Source: Alphaproteobacteria bacterium (GTDB lineage Bacteria > Pseudomonadota > Alphaproteobacteria > CAAHEQ01 > UBA3637). From it: a stretch of 64,000 nucleotides of DNA. A program made the position numbers and the translations under genes. This document shows positions 18,862 to 41,861 of this stretch, in pieces. Where the stretch lies: NCBI GenBank assembly GCA_045613285.1, contig JAZLAQ010000026.1, forward strand, positions 10,556 through 74,555, given 5' to 3'. The stretch's first letter is position 1, and each line of letters starts with the position of its first letter. The notes below the pieces were generated by a model. The model did no database searches, was not told where the DNA came from, and saw nothing but the letters and a program-made list of their open reading frames with translations.

Positions 18862-21030
18862 ATGGATAAAAATATAAAAAATACAATACAGAATAAACAA
18901 ACGACGACCGAATCCGGTCGGAGTATGGTGGAAATGCTGGGTGTACTGGCAGTTGTTGGGTTTTTATCTGTTGGGGGAATTGTAGGTTATACCCATGCAA
19001 TGAACAAATATCATGCCAATGAGATTGTTAGCGAAGTATCTATGATGGCAGTAACGGCATCGCAAGGATTGTTGCTAAACGGTGATTTTACATTAGATGA
19101 ATATGGTGATGAGGTTGCCGGTTATTCGTATGACTACAACGTTGATTTTGGCGGAACAGAAGATCGTTTCAGTATTACGGTTCAGGGTGTAGAAGACGGT
19201 GTATGTGAAAACATAAAGAATATGAACTTCAGTGCATTAAATCAAATTCTTGTCAATGGGACAGCAGACGGAGATTGCACTGATCCCAGTGATGTCGAGT
19301 TTGTCTTTTATGATGATTTTGGCGATTCTTATGAAGGAGAAAACGGTGAAGGAGAAGGAGAACAGCACCTTTCTTGTAATGAAGAACGATGTATGACTTG
19401 CCCAGCTGGAAAAGAAATTTCATGTAAAGATGATTTTAGCGATTGTGCATGTGCAACGAATCCGGAAGATCCAGACAGTTGGGCATGTTATTATATGGAT
19501 TCAGGAAAGAAGAACTGTATTGAATGTCCAGAAGGACAAAAAGTAGTTTTTGATTATGGAAAAGGTTATTGTGTTGATTCTGAGGTAAATGCAAAAGTAT
19601 GTTACGGAGAAATATGCGAGTGTTCAGAGGATGAAACACCTGTTTGTGTAAAGGATGGTTGTGCTTGTGCAAAAGAAAATGAAACAGTTGAGTGTAACCA
19701 TCGAGGATGTATTGTTTGTCCTGAAGGAGAAACACCAAAATGTCCAGCAACGATTGGGAATGAAATAGGTTGCGCATGTATACCACATGTAGAAGATGAA
19801 ACGACTTGGACATGTCGGAGACGTGCATGTATTGGGTGTCAGAAAGGTGAAACACCAATGTGCCCCGAATATGGAGACGGGGAAGAAGCTTGCACCTGTA
19901 TTAAAGCGGGGGAAGAGTGGACGTGTAGTATTAATTATTGTCTGAGTTGTCCAGAAGGGTTCACTCCTCAAGGAGTTCCTGGTTGGGGAAATACCCCTTT
20001 TGTTTGTGTAGATAAGACTAAACCAGATAGTTGGGCATGTGGTGGGTCAGAGTGTATCTCGTGCAATGAAGGTGAAAAACCATTGTGTGGCTCGACCTGT
20101 GTCTGTGTTCCGGATGGTGTTTCTGCTGCATGTAATAGAGGAAACTGTATTACTTGTCCGGTTGGGAAAAAAGCTGTCTGTGGTGATGATGCAGATTTAG
20201 AATATAGTCTTAATTGTTCTTGTATTGATGAAAGTTCTTCTAGTTGGGCGTGCAGTGAAGAAAAGTGTATTGGGTGCCCTGAAGGAAAAATAGCGCATTG
20301 TGATGGATACTCCTGTGTTTGTCTTTCTGAGGAGGCAAAGGAAAATGAGGATTGGGCTTGTAGTGGCTATTCTTGTATTGTCTGCCCCGAAGGGAAGACC
20401 GCCAAGTGTCCTGAATGGGGTGGGTATGAAAACGCCTGTGTTTGTCTTTCTGAGGGGGCAAAGGAAAATGAGGATTGGGCTTGTAATGATAACGTATGTA
20501 TTGAATGTCCTGAAGGTAAAAAAGCTATGTGTTCTGATTATGGGGATGATGAAAGTGCTTGTGTCTGTATATCAGCTAATGCTGTAAAAGGTGAAGATTG
20601 GAATTGTAGTGAAAGTAACTGCGTTACCTGTTCTAATGGGACAATTGCAATATGTGGAGATTATACTTGTAAATGCATTATTGATACTGGAAATGAGGAC
20701 AGTTGGGCATGTAGTTCAGAAGAGTGTATCGAGTGCCCTGAAGGGAAGATACCAAAGTGTTCTGATTGGGGAAATTGTATCTGTATTTCAAAAGATTCTG
20801 AGGAAGGAAGAGATTTCTTATGTGCTCCAGATATGTGTGTCAGCTGTACCAACGGAAAAAAACCGGTATGTGCCGATGATTATGATGGTTATGATACCTG
20901 CATCTGTGTTACCGATATAGATGACGAGGATAGTTGGGAATGTAATTCTGCCGACTGTATTGATTGCCCCGGTGGATATGCAAGATGTCCGAGTAACTAC
21001 GGTGGTTACGGTGATTGTTATTGTACGTAA
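18862..21030 (+). CDS. Giant type IV pilin-like protein with cysteine-rich repeat C-terminal domain (pilin-like adhesin candidate 1)
   Basis: Leader MDKNIKNTIQNKQTTTESG, then cleavage-site G|RSMVEML with Glu at +5 and a hydrophobic helix (GVLAVVGFLSVGGIVGY). A ~130-aa pilin-like globular region follows, then about 14 Cys-rich ~40-aa modules (WAC..C..CPEGK..C..C.C) that include near-identical 123-bp tandem copies. An RBS is present upstream. Confidence 0.75.
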   Translation: MDKNIKNTIQNKQTTTESGRSMVEMLGVLAVVGFLSVGGIVGYTHAMNKYHANEIVSEVSMMAVTASQGLLLNGDFTLDEYGDEVAGYSYDYNVDFGGTEDRFSITVQGVEDGVCENIKNMNFSALNQILVNGTADGDCTDPSDVEFVFYDDFGDSYEGENGEGEGEQHLSCNEERCMTCPAGKEISCKDDFSDCACATNPEDPDSWACYYMDSGKKNCIECPEGQKVVFDYGKGYCVDSEVNAKVCYGEICECSEDETPVCVKDGCACAKENETVECNHRGCIVCPEGETPKCPATIGNEIGCACIPHVEDETTWTCRRRACIGCQKGETPMCPEYGDGEEACTCIKAGEEWTCSINYCLSCPEGFTPQGVPGWGNTPFVCVDKTKPDSWACGGSECISCNEGEKPLCGSTCVCVPDGVSAACNRGNCITCPVGKKAVCGDDADLEYSLNCSCIDESSSSWACSEEKCIGCPEGKIAHCDGYSCVCLSEEAKENEDWACSGYSCIVCPEGKTAKCPEWGGYENACVCLSEGAKENEDWACNDNVCIECPEGKKAMCSDYGDDESACVCISANAVKGEDWNCSESNCVTCSNGTIAICGDYTCKCIIDTGNEDSWACSSEECIECPEGKIPKCSDWGNCICISKDSEEGRDFLCAPDMCVSCTNGKKPVCADDYDGYDTCICVTDIDDEDSWECNSADCIDCPGGYARCPSNYGGYGDCYCT

Positions 21031-21037
21031 GTTCCTG

Positions 21038-21070
21038 ATATCCCCCGCCTTGTGTGGGGGATATTTATAA
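21038..21070 (+). terminator. Hairpin terminator after pilin-like gene 1
   Basis: 9-bp stem atatccccc/gggggatat with a 9-nt loop, followed by an A/T-rich tail. The U-run is weak. Confidence 0.45.
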
Positions 21071-21127: not shown

Positions 21128-21540
21128 TTGATTTTCATGTGTTTACTGCATCCTCGGGTTAAGTCCGAGGATGACAGACCGTATAAATGTCATTGCGAAC
21201 GCAGTGTGGTAATACCCTTTAGTCATTGCGAGGGCTGTAGCCCGTGGCAATCTTTGGAAAATACAGCGTTGGCGTCAAGAGATTACTTCGTCATTACATT
21301 CCTCGTAATGACGGTTGAAGTTAAGAGATTACTTCGTCGTTGCACTCCTCGTAATGACGGTGAAGTTAAGAGATTATTTCGTCGTTGCACTCCTCGTAAT
21401 GACGATTAAGGTTAAGAGATTACGTCGTCGTTATACTCCTCGTAATGACGATTAAGGTTAGGAGATTACTTCGTCGTTATACTCCTTGTAATGACGGTAA
21501 ATATACATCGTCATTGCGAACGCAGTGTGGCAATCTCGTA
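21128..21540. repeat. Array of a structured repeat family: five tandem ~45-bp units (aagagattacttcgtcgttgcactcctcgtaatgacgg...) bracketed by ~24-bp direct repeats (gtcattgcgaacgcagtgtgg.aat)
   Basis: The units start near 21277, 21323, 21367, 21414 and 21459. Flanking direct repeats lie at 21189-21214 and 21508-21538. An internal palindromic element is agcccgtggcaatc. The same motif family recurs after pilin-like gene 2. Confidence 0.8.
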
Positions 21541-23816: not shown

Positions 23817-23892
23817 GGGGCTGTAGCTCAGCTGGGAGAGCGCTGCGTTCGCAATGCAGAGGCCAGGGGTTCAATCCCCCTCAGCTCCACCA
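23817..23892 (+). tRNA. tRNA-Ala (anticodon CGC as read)
   Basis: Clover-leaf read by eye: acceptor GGGGCTG/CAGCTCC, D-arm GCTC-AGCTGGGA-GAGC, anticodon stem-loop CTGCG-TTCGCAA-TGCAG, T-arm AGGGG-TTCAATC-CCCCT, then ACCA. A G3:U70 pair, the Ala identity element, is present. Confidence 0.85.
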
Positions 23893-38614: not shown

Positions 38615-41185
38615 ATGATTAAAAGAATCATTCACAAATTCAAATCAGGTGAAGCCGGGCGGAGTATGGTAGAGATGCTGGCAGTTTTGGCGATAATAGG
38701 TGTATTGACGATAGGTGCGATGGCTGGTTATCGGTATTCGCTTGAAGTGATTATGGCGAACAATATTGTGAATGGTGTGACGGCACGGTCTGTTATAATC
38801 GGTCAACAACGCGTGTTGGGACGGCCGTTAAATTTGAAGGAATTTCATCCGAATAGCAGTAAGGACTTAATATACGACCGTTTCGAGGTGGAGGTATATG
38901 AAGATTATTATGAAGACGGGACGAACATACAGGCCTTGGAGGTAAGGGATATACCGCAGAATGTTTGTAAGCGGGTTGTAAAGACAGAGTTTCCGGATAT
39001 GGCGACGGTGGCAGTTAATGATGTTGTGGACGGAGAGTGTGATATACCGGACGGAGATAAGATATGTAGTAGTTTTACGTGTAGTGAAGAGTTTTTGTCC
39101 CGGGAATATCATAATACGGTCGCGTTTATTTTTGGTGAAGGTGGATACACAGGGTTTTGTGAGAAACGGACGGATTGTCCGTACCCGATATGTCAAAAAT
39201 GTCAGGAGGGTGTTTGTGTAGCCAATACCGACCAGGACGGAGAGCCTTGTTCAACGGCAGCTGGACTTTGCTGTATGGATGGTGTATGTATATCGGATGA
39301 AAGCTGTGGCTATGAACCATCGGACGGCGAAGAATCTTGTGGAGAGGTCAAGCATGGCGAACAATACAATGATTGCGGATTATGTGACAACGGAACGGTT
39401 ATCATGGGTGAAGAAATAACGGATCCGTGTGTTCAATGTGATTTGCATACAGATTATAAAAAGACGCCTCGTGCAGATGGAACAGGACAGTCTGACGGAA
39501 AATGTTGTGTTGGCGGAGAGTTGAAGTATGATGCAACACACTGTCCGGCGACATGTGAGGGGATGGGAACAGCCTGTCAAGTATGTGACGGCAATACCGG
39601 AAATTGGATTTTTAAAGACAACACAAAAACAAAAGTATGCGGAACAGAATGTTGCGGTAGTGAGGGATGTAACAGTCTTGGAACAGGATGTAAAAAGTCA
39701 TGTGAAGGAACAGGGAATGCCTGTCAAACATGCGATGATACAACGGGTGAATGGGTCTTAAATGATAGTGGTAAGACCAATGTCTGTGGAACAGAATGTT
39801 GCGGTAGTGAGGGATGTAACAGTCTTGGAACAGGATGTAAAAAGTCATGTGAAGGAACAGGAAACGCCTGTCAGGTATGTGACGGCAATACCGGAAATTG
39901 GGTTTTAAAAGACAATACAAAAACAAAAGTCTGTGGAACAGAATGTTGCGGTAGTGAGGGGTGTAATAGCCTTGGAACAGGATGTAAAAAGGCTTGTACA
40001 GGGACAGGTAATATCTGTCAGGTATGTGATGATACAACGGGTGAATGGAAAACTGTTGAGGACGGTTCTAATAAACAAGATGACGGCAGATGTTGTATTG
40101 ATGGTGCGCTTGCGTATGATGCAGAATTGTGTCCGGCAAAGGACTGTATTTTTGACGGAATAACCTATTACCATGGAGAGAGTATTCGTGCTTGTGGTAT
40201 ATGTGTTGATGGTGAAATTCAGGAAGACACATCCAAAACATCGGTGTGTAAATGTGATAAAACGACTTGGAGGGCAGACCATAGCATGACAGATCCTGCC
40301 ATCAGACGAGAAGACGGATCATGTTGTGTTGCTGGATATTTTCAACAACACTATGTCATATGTAAAACATGTACCGTAGATGGAAAAACTTATTTACATA
40401 ATGAAGATATTCCCCCCTGCAAATATTGTTTCGGAGGCCGAGTTTATAAGTATGATTCTAGAAGGCCCGACGGAACATGTTGTGTTGATGGTGAGGTAGT
40501 GCTTGATCCGGTTGAAATGACGTATTGGCCACAGTGTATGGCATGTACGTTCAACGGGTATGGCTATGAAAACGGTGCCAGTATTGGTACTTGCGGAAAA
40601 TGTGTTGATGGTGAAATTCAGGAAGATACATCCAAGGTATCGATGTGTCAAACATGTGATACAAGTACTTGGACGTTGACAAATGTAGCGAATGGCTCAA
40701 AACCACAGAGCGATGGCAGATGTTGTGTTGATGGAGAGTTAAAGTATGATGAAGCATGCCCTCCTGTTGGTGGGGATGGTGAAGAAGATAAGTGTCCAGA
40801 AAGTGCAACATTTGTTGGTGGTACCTGTTGTGTGGGACATCGCTATTGGTCTGATACTTATGATAAATGGATAGAATCTAGTGGCGTTGATGCGGTTTGC
40901 CGTTGTGTAGGAGAAGTAGGAAATGTTATTTATGATAGGGAGGCAGAATTCTGCTTTAAATGTTTTTCAACAGAGTATTCGGGTGCAGGCACCTGTCCTG
41001 TAGGAAAGTACATGATAGATTACGATGAATGCATAGCTGAAGATAAAATTGGACTTGTAAGAGAGTGTTGTGCTGTAGTTGGAGGAGAATTCTGTGAGCC
41101 GGCTGGTATATGTCTATTAAAAGATCATGTGTGTTGCGAAAATGGCTCTGTAGCCTTGAAATCAGTTGGATGCCCCTTACTTTGA
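38615..41185 (+). CDS. Giant type IV pilin-like protein with cysteine-rich repeat C-terminal domain (pilin-like adhesin candidate 2)
   Basis: Leader MIKRIIHKFKSGEAG, then G|RSMVEML with Glu at +5 and helix AVLAIIGVLTIGAMAGY. A pilin-like globular region follows, then ~650 aa with more than 100 Cys. These include 3.3 near-identical 147-bp tandem repeats (CEGTGNACQVCDGNTGNW..KVCGTECCGSEGCNSLGTGCKKS). Confidence 0.75.
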   Translation: MIKRIIHKFKSGEAGRSMVEMLAVLAIIGVLTIGAMAGYRYSLEVIMANNIVNGVTARSVIIGQQRVLGRPLNLKEFHPNSSKDLIYDRFEVEVYEDYYEDGTNIQALEVRDIPQNVCKRVVKTEFPDMATVAVNDVVDGECDIPDGDKICSSFTCSEEFLSREYHNTVAFIFGEGGYTGFCEKRTDCPYPICQKCQEGVCVANTDQDGEPCSTAAGLCCMDGVCISDESCGYEPSDGEESCGEVKHGEQYNDCGLCDNGTVIMGEEITDPCVQCDLHTDYKKTPRADGTGQSDGKCCVGGELKYDATHCPATCEGMGTACQVCDGNTGNWIFKDNTKTKVCGTECCGSEGCNSLGTGCKKSCEGTGNACQTCDDTTGEWVLNDSGKTNVCGTECCGSEGCNSLGTGCKKSCEGTGNACQVCDGNTGNWVLKDNTKTKVCGTECCGSEGCNSLGTGCKKACTGTGNICQVCDDTTGEWKTVEDGSNKQDDGRCCIDGALAYDAELCPAKDCIFDGITYYHGESIRACGICVDGEIQEDTSKTSVCKCDKTTWRADHSMTDPAIRREDGSCCVAGYFQQHYVICKTCTVDGKTYLHNEDIPPCKYCFGGRVYKYDSRRPDGTCCVDGEVVLDPVEMTYWPQCMACTFNGYGYENGASIGTCGKCVDGEIQEDTSKVSMCQTCDTSTWTLTNVANGSKPQSDGRCCVDGELKYDEACPPVGGDGEEDKCPESATFVGGTCCVGHRYWSDTYDKWIESSGVDAVCRCVGEVGNVIYDREAEFCFKCFSTEYSGAGTCPVGKYMIDYDECIAEDKIGLVRECCAVVGGEFCEPAGICLLKDHVCCENGSVALKSVGCPLL

Positions 41186-41199
41186 TTAAGTGATATTCC

Positions 41200-41630
41200 C
41201 GCACAGGTGTTAATAGATTACTTCGTCGCTTTGCTCCTCGTAATGACGGTTGAATCATCGTCATTGCGAACGTAGTGAAGCAATCTGTTGAGAGATTGCC
41301 ACGGGCTGATTCCCTTGCAATGACGGGAAATGTCAAGAGATTACTTCGTCGCTTTGCTCCTCGTAATGACGGTTGAATCATCGTCATTGCGAACGCAGTG
41401 AAGCAATCTGTTGAGAGATTGCCACGGGCTGATGTCCTCGCAATGACAGAAAATATCAAGAGATTACTTTGTCGCTCTGTTCCTCGTAATGACGGTTGAA
41501 TCATCGTCATTGCGAACGCAGTGAAGCAATCTGTTGAGAGATTGCCACGGGCTGATGCCCTTGCAATGACGGGAAATATCAAGAGATTACTTCGTCGCTT
41601 TGCTCCTCGTAATGACAGGAGAGGGGCGGG
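41200..41630. repeat. Array of 3.3 tandem copies of a 124-125-bp structured repeat immediately downstream of pilin-like gene 2
   Basis: The unit is agattacttcgtcgctttgctcctcgtaatgacggttgaatcatcgtcattgcgaacgcagtgaagcaatctgttgagagattgccacgggctgat.cccttgcaatgacgggaaat.tcaag, with copies starting near 41214, 41339, 41463 and 41587. It contains internal hairpins (gcaatct/agattgc and cgtaatgacg/cgtcattgcg). Its motifs are shared with the 21128-21540 array. Confidence 0.85.
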
Positions 41631-41861
41631 ATGACAGAGAAAAAAAGGAAGGGACAAAAGAAGAGATAGATCGAAAATAGCAGACGGGGGTAGATGATAT
41701 TTCAACTTGGATATCATCTTCCATACCTTACATTTATACTATCTTAAACGATATTTTTCCTTTTTAAATTGTTAGTGAGCAGATATAAATTACCGGTAGC
41801 TAAGATTTCTTGGGTACCGGTTTAAATAATTTATTGTATTTTATTTATTTTATTGATAGGT

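Follow-up and report, generated by a model that had tools for sequence, protein, structure and literature searches.

The repeats considered here form two arrays in a 64,000-nt stretch of contig JAZLAQ010000026.1 from an alphaproteobacterial assembly (GCA_045613285.1; hereafter, the window), where each array lies just 3′ of a giant pilin-like gene. Their closest described counterparts are the NTS and the Ssn-related motifs (SRMs), and the CGTC-tagged REPs. The NTS (CGTCATTCCCGCGMAVGCGGGAATCYRG) and related SRMs flank ssnA, which encodes a 94-aa GIY-YIG protein that binds the hairpin only as single-stranded DNA (ssDNA), not as RNA, and cuts a few nt upstream of it; cutting depends on the three bases before the palindrome (GTC), and binding on the C that follows it (Chenal et al., Nat Commun 2025; PMC11893778). 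As defined in that study, an SRM is a 20-50-nt inverted repeat that forms a hairpin and flanks, often on both sides, genes for single-domain GIY-YIG proteins of ~95 aa (Ssn, cd10448), and 29 SRMs have been curated (PMC11893778). In Neisseria, NTS clusters adjoin surface-protein genes and SsnA lowers transformation by NTS-bearing DNA (PMC11893778). The CGTC-tagged REPs (families CGTC-1 to -4) have a CGTC/TGTC (or CCTC) head, 8-9-bp stems starting with AT, 4-5-nt loops and a short tail, and they form head-to-head dimers (Di Nocera, De Gregorio & Rocco, BMC Genomics 2013; PMC3733652). Alpha-proteobacteria and Bacteroidetes often carry them, and Neisseria dRS3 as well as Rickettsia RPE-4 and RPE-6 are among their members. 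A transposase for these REPs was sought and none was found, and they 'apparently lack a dedicated transposase'; their clusters were called rare except in Neisseria and Wolbachia, and bulged variants may have been missed (PMC3733652).

Comparison of the window with these systems leads us to propose, with a probability of about 0.75, that each of the two blocks is a cluster of small hairpin-forming DNA repeats which belong to the CGTC-tagged REP superfamily and the NTS/SRM class. The window repeats would thus be a divergent subtype of a known repeat class that occupies two convergent intergenic gaps, and not a pilin-gene-specific device; what seemed a gene-specific regulatory array becomes one case of a repeat system whose nature has only lately become clear. 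In common with the NTS and SRMs, the window modules have a putative hairpin whose stem begins with AT; GTC immediately precedes it and a C immediately follows, which amounts to a directional, non-palindromic tag. Modules of the window type in other genomes likewise flank genes for ~95-aa single-domain GIY-YIG proteins on both sides, are intergenic and occur at hundreds to thousands of loci across phyla, and those of the window cluster beside surface-protein genes. With the CGTC REPs they share an unpaired CGTC/TGTC head, AT at the start of the stem and a short unpaired tail starting with C, as well as head-to-head dimers; both lie 3′ of open reading frames (ORFs), in gaps between tandem or convergent genes, and both are common among alpha-proteobacteria and Bacteroidetes. 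The canonical NTS has an uninterrupted 8-bp stem (ATTCCCGC) with a 4-nt loop and the CGTC REPs have a perfect 8-9-bp stem, whereas in the window modules a conserved internal loop, GA/GAA (or GTG), separates a 5-bp proximal stem from a distal mini-hairpin that varies. Unlike the SRMs of PMC11893778, they also build long regular tandem arrays (46 bp x5 and 123 bp x3.3), with no ssn gene in the window. They resemble the Neisseria intergenic mosaic elements (NIMEs) and the BIMEs of E. coli, which are likewise non-coding mosaics between genes, made up of short hairpin repeats that alternate in orientation and associated with a small nuclease or transposase gene flanked by the same repeats; unlike the BIME/RAYT system, the window modules have neither a GTAG tag nor a RAYT, and the partner fold is GIY-YIG rather than HUH. 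Neisseria dRS3, the 20-bp repeat (ATTCCC-N8-GGGAAT) at the borders of NIME units, has no match in the window at up to one mismatch, and a literature search with the literal repeat sequences returned primers only.

Tandem Repeats Finder places array 1 at 21277-21498 (unit 46 bp, 4.8 copies, 90% matches) and array 2 at 41215-41616 (unit 123 bp, 3.3 copies, 93% matches), which bears out a first-pass annotation of the window that had described a repeat block after pilin-like gene 1 and the same sequence family after pilin-like gene 2. That annotation had read array 1 as five tandem ~45-bp units; the period and copy number hold, but both arrays combine three related types of hairpin module (A, B and C; 26-32 nt), in both orientations, into a mosaic rather than a series of simple tandem units. 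Array 1 runs B(+), C(+), five A(-), B(+), and array 2 repeats the trio A(-), B(+), C(-), in which the heads of A and B face each other across 10 nt and the tails of B and C across 6 nt. The direct repeat that had been seen to bracket array 1, CGTCATTGCGAACGCAGTG, is present at 21188 and 21509 and recurs at 41259, 41382 and 41505. At up to three mismatches it has six matches in the window versus 0.01 expected; the sixth, at 23841-23859, lies within a tRNA (23817-23889) and was judged a chance match because it has three mismatches and falls on the anticodon arm. The motif AGATTACTTCGTCG occurs nine times at 0-1 mismatch, always within the two arrays, and the palindromic agcccgtggcaatc, previously listed as a separate element, proved to be part of the third module type (C) at 21222-21252, with three reverse-orientation copies in array 2. 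In the two arrays, a detector based on structure (GTC + stem ... stem′ + C) picks up 17 modules, and the addition of two degenerate copies and one possible extra hairpin brings the total to ~20. Outside the arrays the same detector finds no module copy in the 64 kb, the seven other matches being AT-rich and compared with ~5.5 expected in shuffles; the earlier statement that nothing similar follows the other genes of the window is therefore correct.

On the sense strand the modules follow a common layout, 5′-(C)GTC, ATTGC or ATTAC, GA, a variable mini-hairpin, GAA or GTG, GCAAT or GTAAT, C-3′, which corresponds to a 5-bp stem starting with AT followed by a GA/GAA internal loop and a distal stem of 1-4 bp. 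The core of module B is AC-gca-GT and that of module C is GGGC-nnnn-GCCC, while the core of module A is G-GA-GC-aaa-GC-GA-C in array 2 and G-GA-GT-gca-AC-GA-C in array 1, a difference that is compensatory. GTC plus stem and stem plus C are kept in all 17 detector-found modules, and the two degenerate copies (21189-21214 and 21372-21403) deviate in the 3′ half-stem. The head is CGTC at 21509, 41259, 41382 and 41505, and the A and C modules, read on the minus strand, have it too (...AATGACG); TGTC is found at 21188 and, on the minus strand, at 41447, and AGTC once, at 21221. Across lineages the proximal stem covaries (ATTGC/GCAAT, ATTAC/GTAAT, ATTCT/AGAAT, ATTCC/GGAAT and ATCCT/AGGAT). Of the cores of ATTGC- or ATTAC-type modules, 123 are unique; 107 of these start with GA, and the endings GAA, GTG and GCG account for 61, 24 and 24, respectively. 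A Watson-Crick closing pair is present in 90 of 97 distal cores, compared to a mean of 25.9 (maximum 39) in 500 shuffles, and 46 of the 97 have at least two closing pairs versus 6.5 in shuffles. These comparative data support a bipartite hairpin as the probable fold of the module.

The modules are widely distributed across phyla. A scan for an 18-mer of module B in one genome per species recovered at least 120 loci (L001-L120) in Bacteroidota, Alpha-, Beta-, Gamma- and Deltaproteobacteria, Chloroflexota, Bacillota, Nitrospinota, Elusimicrobiota and others. By a uniform-composition estimate ~35 matches to the 18-mer would be expected by chance, which does not account for the finding that nearly all matches listed extend to one and the same 27-mer, GTCATTGCGAACGYAGTGAAGCAATCY (e.g. 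L005, L018, L042 and L065). Identity over 27 nt across phyla would imply either very strong constraint from a recognising protein or frequent horizontal spread of cassettes. Many of the listed module B copies are followed after 6-35 nt by a complementary arm, GATTGCTTC...TCGCAATGAC, and TCGCAATGAC, the partner half-site, is far commoner in the vicinity than chance predicts: together the two outer half-sites occur 278 times in 856 kb (137 by construction) versus ~1.6 expected. Two such modules thus combine into a long imperfect hairpin, which is the usual form of the complete element. Tandem module arrays exist in other genomes as well (43 bp x5 at L085, and at L036, L091 and L105). Among the matches listed, 117 of 137 B copies are not within an ORF of 110 aa or more; convergent gaps hold somewhat more than their share (31% of classifiable copies versus 18% of gaps), copies also occur in divergent gaps, and there is no orientation bias with respect to the neighbouring gene (21 same, 26 opposite). 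In alphaproteobacterial metagenome-assembled genomes the neighbours resemble the housekeeping genes alaS, rpoN, fabI, infC, mreB and accC, as judged from N-terminal sequences only. None of the loci retrieved comes from the organism of the window; the closest to it, at 66% nucleotide identity, belongs to an alphaproteobacterial metagenome-assembled genome.

The recurrent partner of the modules is a small GIY-YIG gene. All-against-all clustering of the 3144 ORFs of the 120 loci yielded, among the matches listed, a single recurrent small family, a ~95-aa GIY-YIG protein present at five loci, and at each of the five the modules directly abut its gene. In a sample drawn independently of the repeats, by exact-protein look-ups, four of four loci (L201, L211, L221 and L222) are module-flanked. 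At L221 (arms at 1468-1500 and 1822-1850) only 7 nt separate the 5′ arm from the ATG and the 3′ arm begins right after the stop codon, which puts the GIY-YIG gene in the loop of a long hairpin. ATTGC-type modules flank GIY-YIG genes at L014, L007, L227, L262, L263, L265 and L266. In the subclade nearest to the L014 protein, the flanks are specifically of this type at four of four loci, with the gene lying between the arms at L263 and L265 (flanks of 701-1003). The flanked proteins match PF01541 and are 94-100 aa long, and the same protein family includes genes with canonical NTS flanks (L242, L243 and L248). CGTC/GTCA-type hairpins, read by eye and with one-sided sequence at several loci, stand beside essentially all of 34 relatives on viral contigs, some of which carry the canonical NTS sequence CGTCATTCCCGCGAAGGCGGGAATCCAG. 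The link of the modules to GIY-YIG genes is thus exclusive, and this association, derived here from the data, is already published (PMC11893778). The exact module B 18-mer is also present in five IMG/VR viral contigs (L257-L261); given these contigs and the 34 viral contigs with ssn-like GIY-YIG genes and flanking hairpins, phages or prophage-adjacent regions may help to spread the system. Loci with an arm-gene-arm order (L221, L263 and L265) exist alongside gene-less long hairpins, as one would expect of an autonomous element and the miniatures derived from it.

We consider it most likely that the arrays are non-autonomous relatives of arm-ssn-arm cassettes. In other genomes, ATTGC-type modules constitute two inverted arms around a ~95-aa GIY-YIG gene, putatively of the Ssn family, with gene-less arm pairs and single arms scattered intergenically; the window modules would be non-autonomous derivatives of such a cassette. 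Once single-stranded, the modules would fold and be bound by a cognate Ssn nuclease, which would cut a few nt 5′ of GTC, as suggested by the ssDNA binding and cutting described for SsnA (PMC11893778). The modules may multiply where intergenic gaps tolerate them, in the window at two convergent gene ends, and come to lie in clusters, head-to-head and tail-to-tail. This genome would encode a cognate Ssn, and the arrays could affect recombination or transformation around the two surface-protein genes.

Several observations weigh against this assignment. In nearest-neighbour DNA folding, single modules fold at -1.4 to -4.3 kcal/mol, which is no better than shuffles, and the stable predicted pairings form between adjacent modules; the single-module hairpin consequently rests on covariation and not on energy. 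Such single-module folds are too weak to tell the strands apart, and standard parameters ignore sheared G.A pairs and GNA triloops. The published SRM pattern, HGTCWYN(0-2)YYVSBRHN(0-5)WNVSBRGN(0-2)RNCYNB, matches no site in the window and none of seven representative modules, although it does match the canonical NTS and the L242 flank. The GIY-YIG genes are placed as putative Ssn by PF01541, size and flanks, whereas the class criterion is cd10448, and there is no GIY-YIG/ssn gene within the 64-kb window. Lastly, the arrays occupy exactly the two gaps that follow the only two pilin-like genes, for which the chance is 1/45 if the 10 convergent gaps are considered and 1/946 for all 44 gaps. A neutral model does not explain this coincidence, and we do not dismiss it.

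Table 1. Repeat modules of the two arrays and the features next to them (window coordinates).
Feature	Coordinates	Strand	Basis or context
Pilin-like gene 1, 722 aa, prepilin-type N-terminus (GRSMVEML), then Cys-rich repeats	18862..21030	+	context of array 1
Hairpin, 12-bp stem, terminator-like, weak T-tract, between gene 1 and array 1	21037..21065	+	sequence reading, folding
Possible extra module of a different (ATCCT) subtype, tGTC-ATCCTCGG-acttaac-CCGAGGAT-gc	21145..21176	-	read from sequence
Module B, degenerate copy, GTCATTGCGAACGCAGTGTGGTAATA	21189..21214	+	motif matching
Module C, GTC-ATTGC-GA-GGGC-tgta-GCCC-GTG-GCAAT-C	21222..21252	+	module detector
Module A, array 1, copy 1 of 5; minus strand GTC-ATTAC-GA-...-GAA-GTAAT-C	21281..21312	-	Tandem Repeats Finder, motif matching, module detector
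Module A, array 1, copy 2	21327..21358	-	Tandem Repeats Finder, motif matching, module detector
Module A, array 1, copy 3, one mismatch in proximal stem	21372..21403	-	Tandem Repeats Finder, motif matching
Module A, array 1, copy 4	21418..21449	-	Tandem Repeats Finder, motif matching, module detector
Module A, array 1, copy 5	21464..21495	-	Tandem Repeats Finder, motif matching, module detector
Module B, array 1, preceding C gives CGTC tag	21510..21535	+	motif matching, module detector
Pilin-like gene 2, 856 aa, Cys-rich, prepilin-type N-terminus (GRSMVEML)	38615..41185	+	context of array 2
Module A, array 2, unit 1	41216..41247	-	Tandem Repeats Finder, motif matching, module detector
Module B, array 2, unit 1, head-to-head with preceding A, 10-nt spacer	41260..41285	+	motif matching, module detector
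Module C, array 2, unit 1, tail-to-tail with B, 6-nt spacer	41294..41324	-	module detector
Module A, array 2, unit 2	41339..41370	-	Tandem Repeats Finder, motif matching, module detector
Module B, array 2, unit 2	41383..41408	+	motif matching, module detector
Module C, array 2, unit 2	41417..41447	-	module detector
Module A, array 2, unit 3	41462..41493	-	motif matching, module detector
Module B, array 2, unit 3	41506..41531	+	motif matching, module detector
Module C, array 2, unit 3	41540..41570	-	module detector
Module A, array 2, last partial unit	41585..41616	-	motif matching, module detector

The association with pilin-like genes was the central claim of the first-pass annotation, and within the window it stands, since both arrays follow the only two genes with prepilin-type N-termini. 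The N-terminal domains of the two products (~145 aa) are 29% identical, and neither protein has a match in Pfam. A metagenome scan with this shared domain, covering gut, rumen and similar samples, returned 80 loci (L121-L200); of the 73 relatives whose 3′ end is complete and whose flank spans 150 bp or more, a single one (L187) has repeats 3′ of the gene. The pilin-like gene at L187 encodes 115 aa; downstream of it come a terminator and, beyond this, modules C, C, B and A, oriented as in array 1. Conversely, a loose prepilin pattern gave one match in the 120 repeat-bearing loci among the matches listed (L004), and this is not a pilin gene. Given one module-bearing relative in 73, and repeat-bearing loci that lack a pilin gene and have housekeeping-like neighbours, the repeat family is not tied to pilin-like genes, and a general link between the two is lacking. 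At the level of the family, the element is essentially what the annotation had set against its own proposal, a generic repeat dispersed over at least 120 loci in many phyla, beside unrelated genes. Of its three suggested functions, a MITE family that targets the 3′ ends of these genes came closest, in that the family is dispersed and MITE-like though not bound to pilin-like genes. What survives of the association is that the same superfamily has been reported to cluster beside surface-protein genes in Neisseria (PMC11893778), and this may hold outside Neisseria as well.

The two pilin-like genes themselves belong to a large uncharacterised family defined by the prepilin-type N-terminus and the ~145-aa N-domain, with 299 relatives confirmed in metagenomes. 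These are mostly small (110-400 aa) and often occur as three to four consecutive copies (L148, L153, L155 and L169). In the window, long Cys-rich tandem repeats are fused to the N-domain (123 bp x2.2 at 20301-20568 and 147 bp x3 at 39614-40048). The stop codon of gene 1 (21028-21030) is followed by a hairpin, as had been noted; it fails a terminator scan because its T-tract is short. The additional hairpin just upstream of array 1 (21145-21176) resembles the ATCCT-type modules that flank the L201 GIY-YIG gene.

A more far-reaching version of our proposal would take the coincidence in the window at face value. The bipartite ATTGC-GA...GAA-GCAAT hairpin would then be a distinct target class of an Ssn subclade, spread over many phyla but missed by the SRM census. 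In this low-GC, gut-type alphaproteobacterium, the position of the arrays just 3′ of giant, variable genes for pilin-like surface proteins would be no accident, and the arrays would serve as ssDNA-cleavage punctuation that limits or shapes the recombination of incoming DNA at these genes. Were this so, the idea of transformation control by NTS and SsnA would extend from Neisseria to an unrelated lineage with a new motif architecture, but we regard it as unlikely.

Another possibility, also raised by the first-pass annotation, is that the arrays act as RNA. They would be 3′-untranslated-region stem-loops of the pilin-like mRNAs that block 3′ exonucleases or aid termination, tuning surface-protein expression, a role classically proposed for REP and BIME elements. 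The arrays do start 30-100 nt past the stop codons on the strand side of the gene, RNA from the + strand of array 1 folds better than that from the minus strand (-180.8 kcal/mol, z = -6.0, versus -141.3 kcal/mol, z = -3.7), partly via G.U pairs, and many REPs have been argued to be transcribed (PMC3733652). Nonetheless, modules occur in both orientations within each array, and across the at least 120 loci the even split of orientations relative to the upstream gene and the copies in divergent gaps are not what a 3′-end RNA element would lead one to expect. Array 1 and the L187 array both lie beyond a terminator-like hairpin, and neither window array matches Rfam, whether at gathering thresholds or at E<=10. 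The 27-nt identity across phyla points to recognition by a protein rather than to a generic stem-loop, and the characterised partner enzyme does not bind RNA (PMC11893778). We therefore hold an RNA function to be improbable.

Recombination offers a further explanation: the pilin-like genes would exchange cassettes or undergo antigenic variation, and the arrays would serve them as acceptor sites or regions of homology, in the manner of the repeats downstream of Neisseria pilE/pilS. That two different and highly variable Cys-rich genes share a 3′ repeat family is in keeping with this, as is literature linking dRS3/NTS relatives to variable surface genes and recombination. However, 'silent cassette'-like acceptor sites, as once suggested for the arrays, find no counterpart in the window, which holds no silent copies or fragments of either gene outside the genes themselves; together with the single repeat-bearing gene among 73 relatives and the same modules adjoining apparent housekeeping genes elsewhere, this makes such a function quite improbable. 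Ordinary MITEs or REPs moved by a conventional transposase (DDE or HUH-type RAYT) and unrelated to GIY-YIG would fit the inverted-repeat architecture, short length, intergenic location and BIME-like clustering, but are very improbable in view of the missing GTAG tag in both arrays, the lack of any recurrent transposase or RAYT family among the 3144 neighbouring ORFs of the matches listed, the lack of a transposase linked to CGTC REPs (PMC3733652) and the GIY-YIG gene as the only consistent partner. A CRISPR array was rejected, as the 'spacers' are themselves repeated modules and the CRISPR-DR hit is insignificant (14.6 bits versus a gathering score of 38).

Assignment of the arrays to the NTS/SRM and CGTC REP superfamily has consequences beyond the window. 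ATTGC-type modules are very widespread yet escape the SRM search pattern, and current counts of Ssn targets are therefore probably underestimates. Each pair of a subtype and the ssn gene beside it is a candidate source of a new specificity for tools that cut ssDNA. The repeats also create spurious ORFs, extend GIY-YIG gene calls and probably break assemblies, and recognising them improves annotation. Gene callers translate them into a 253-aa spurious ORF across array 2 (40956-41717, minus strand) and another that spans the repeats of L187 (791-955). Many GIY-YIG database ORFs likewise run into the repeats, with tails ending in ...RDSSLMLRMTKK and EILRCAQNDK or the N-terminus CHSERSEES (P0002-P0008, P0027, P0031 and P0098), and many ssn genes lie on contigs of less than 2 kb, which suggests that assemblies break at the repeats.

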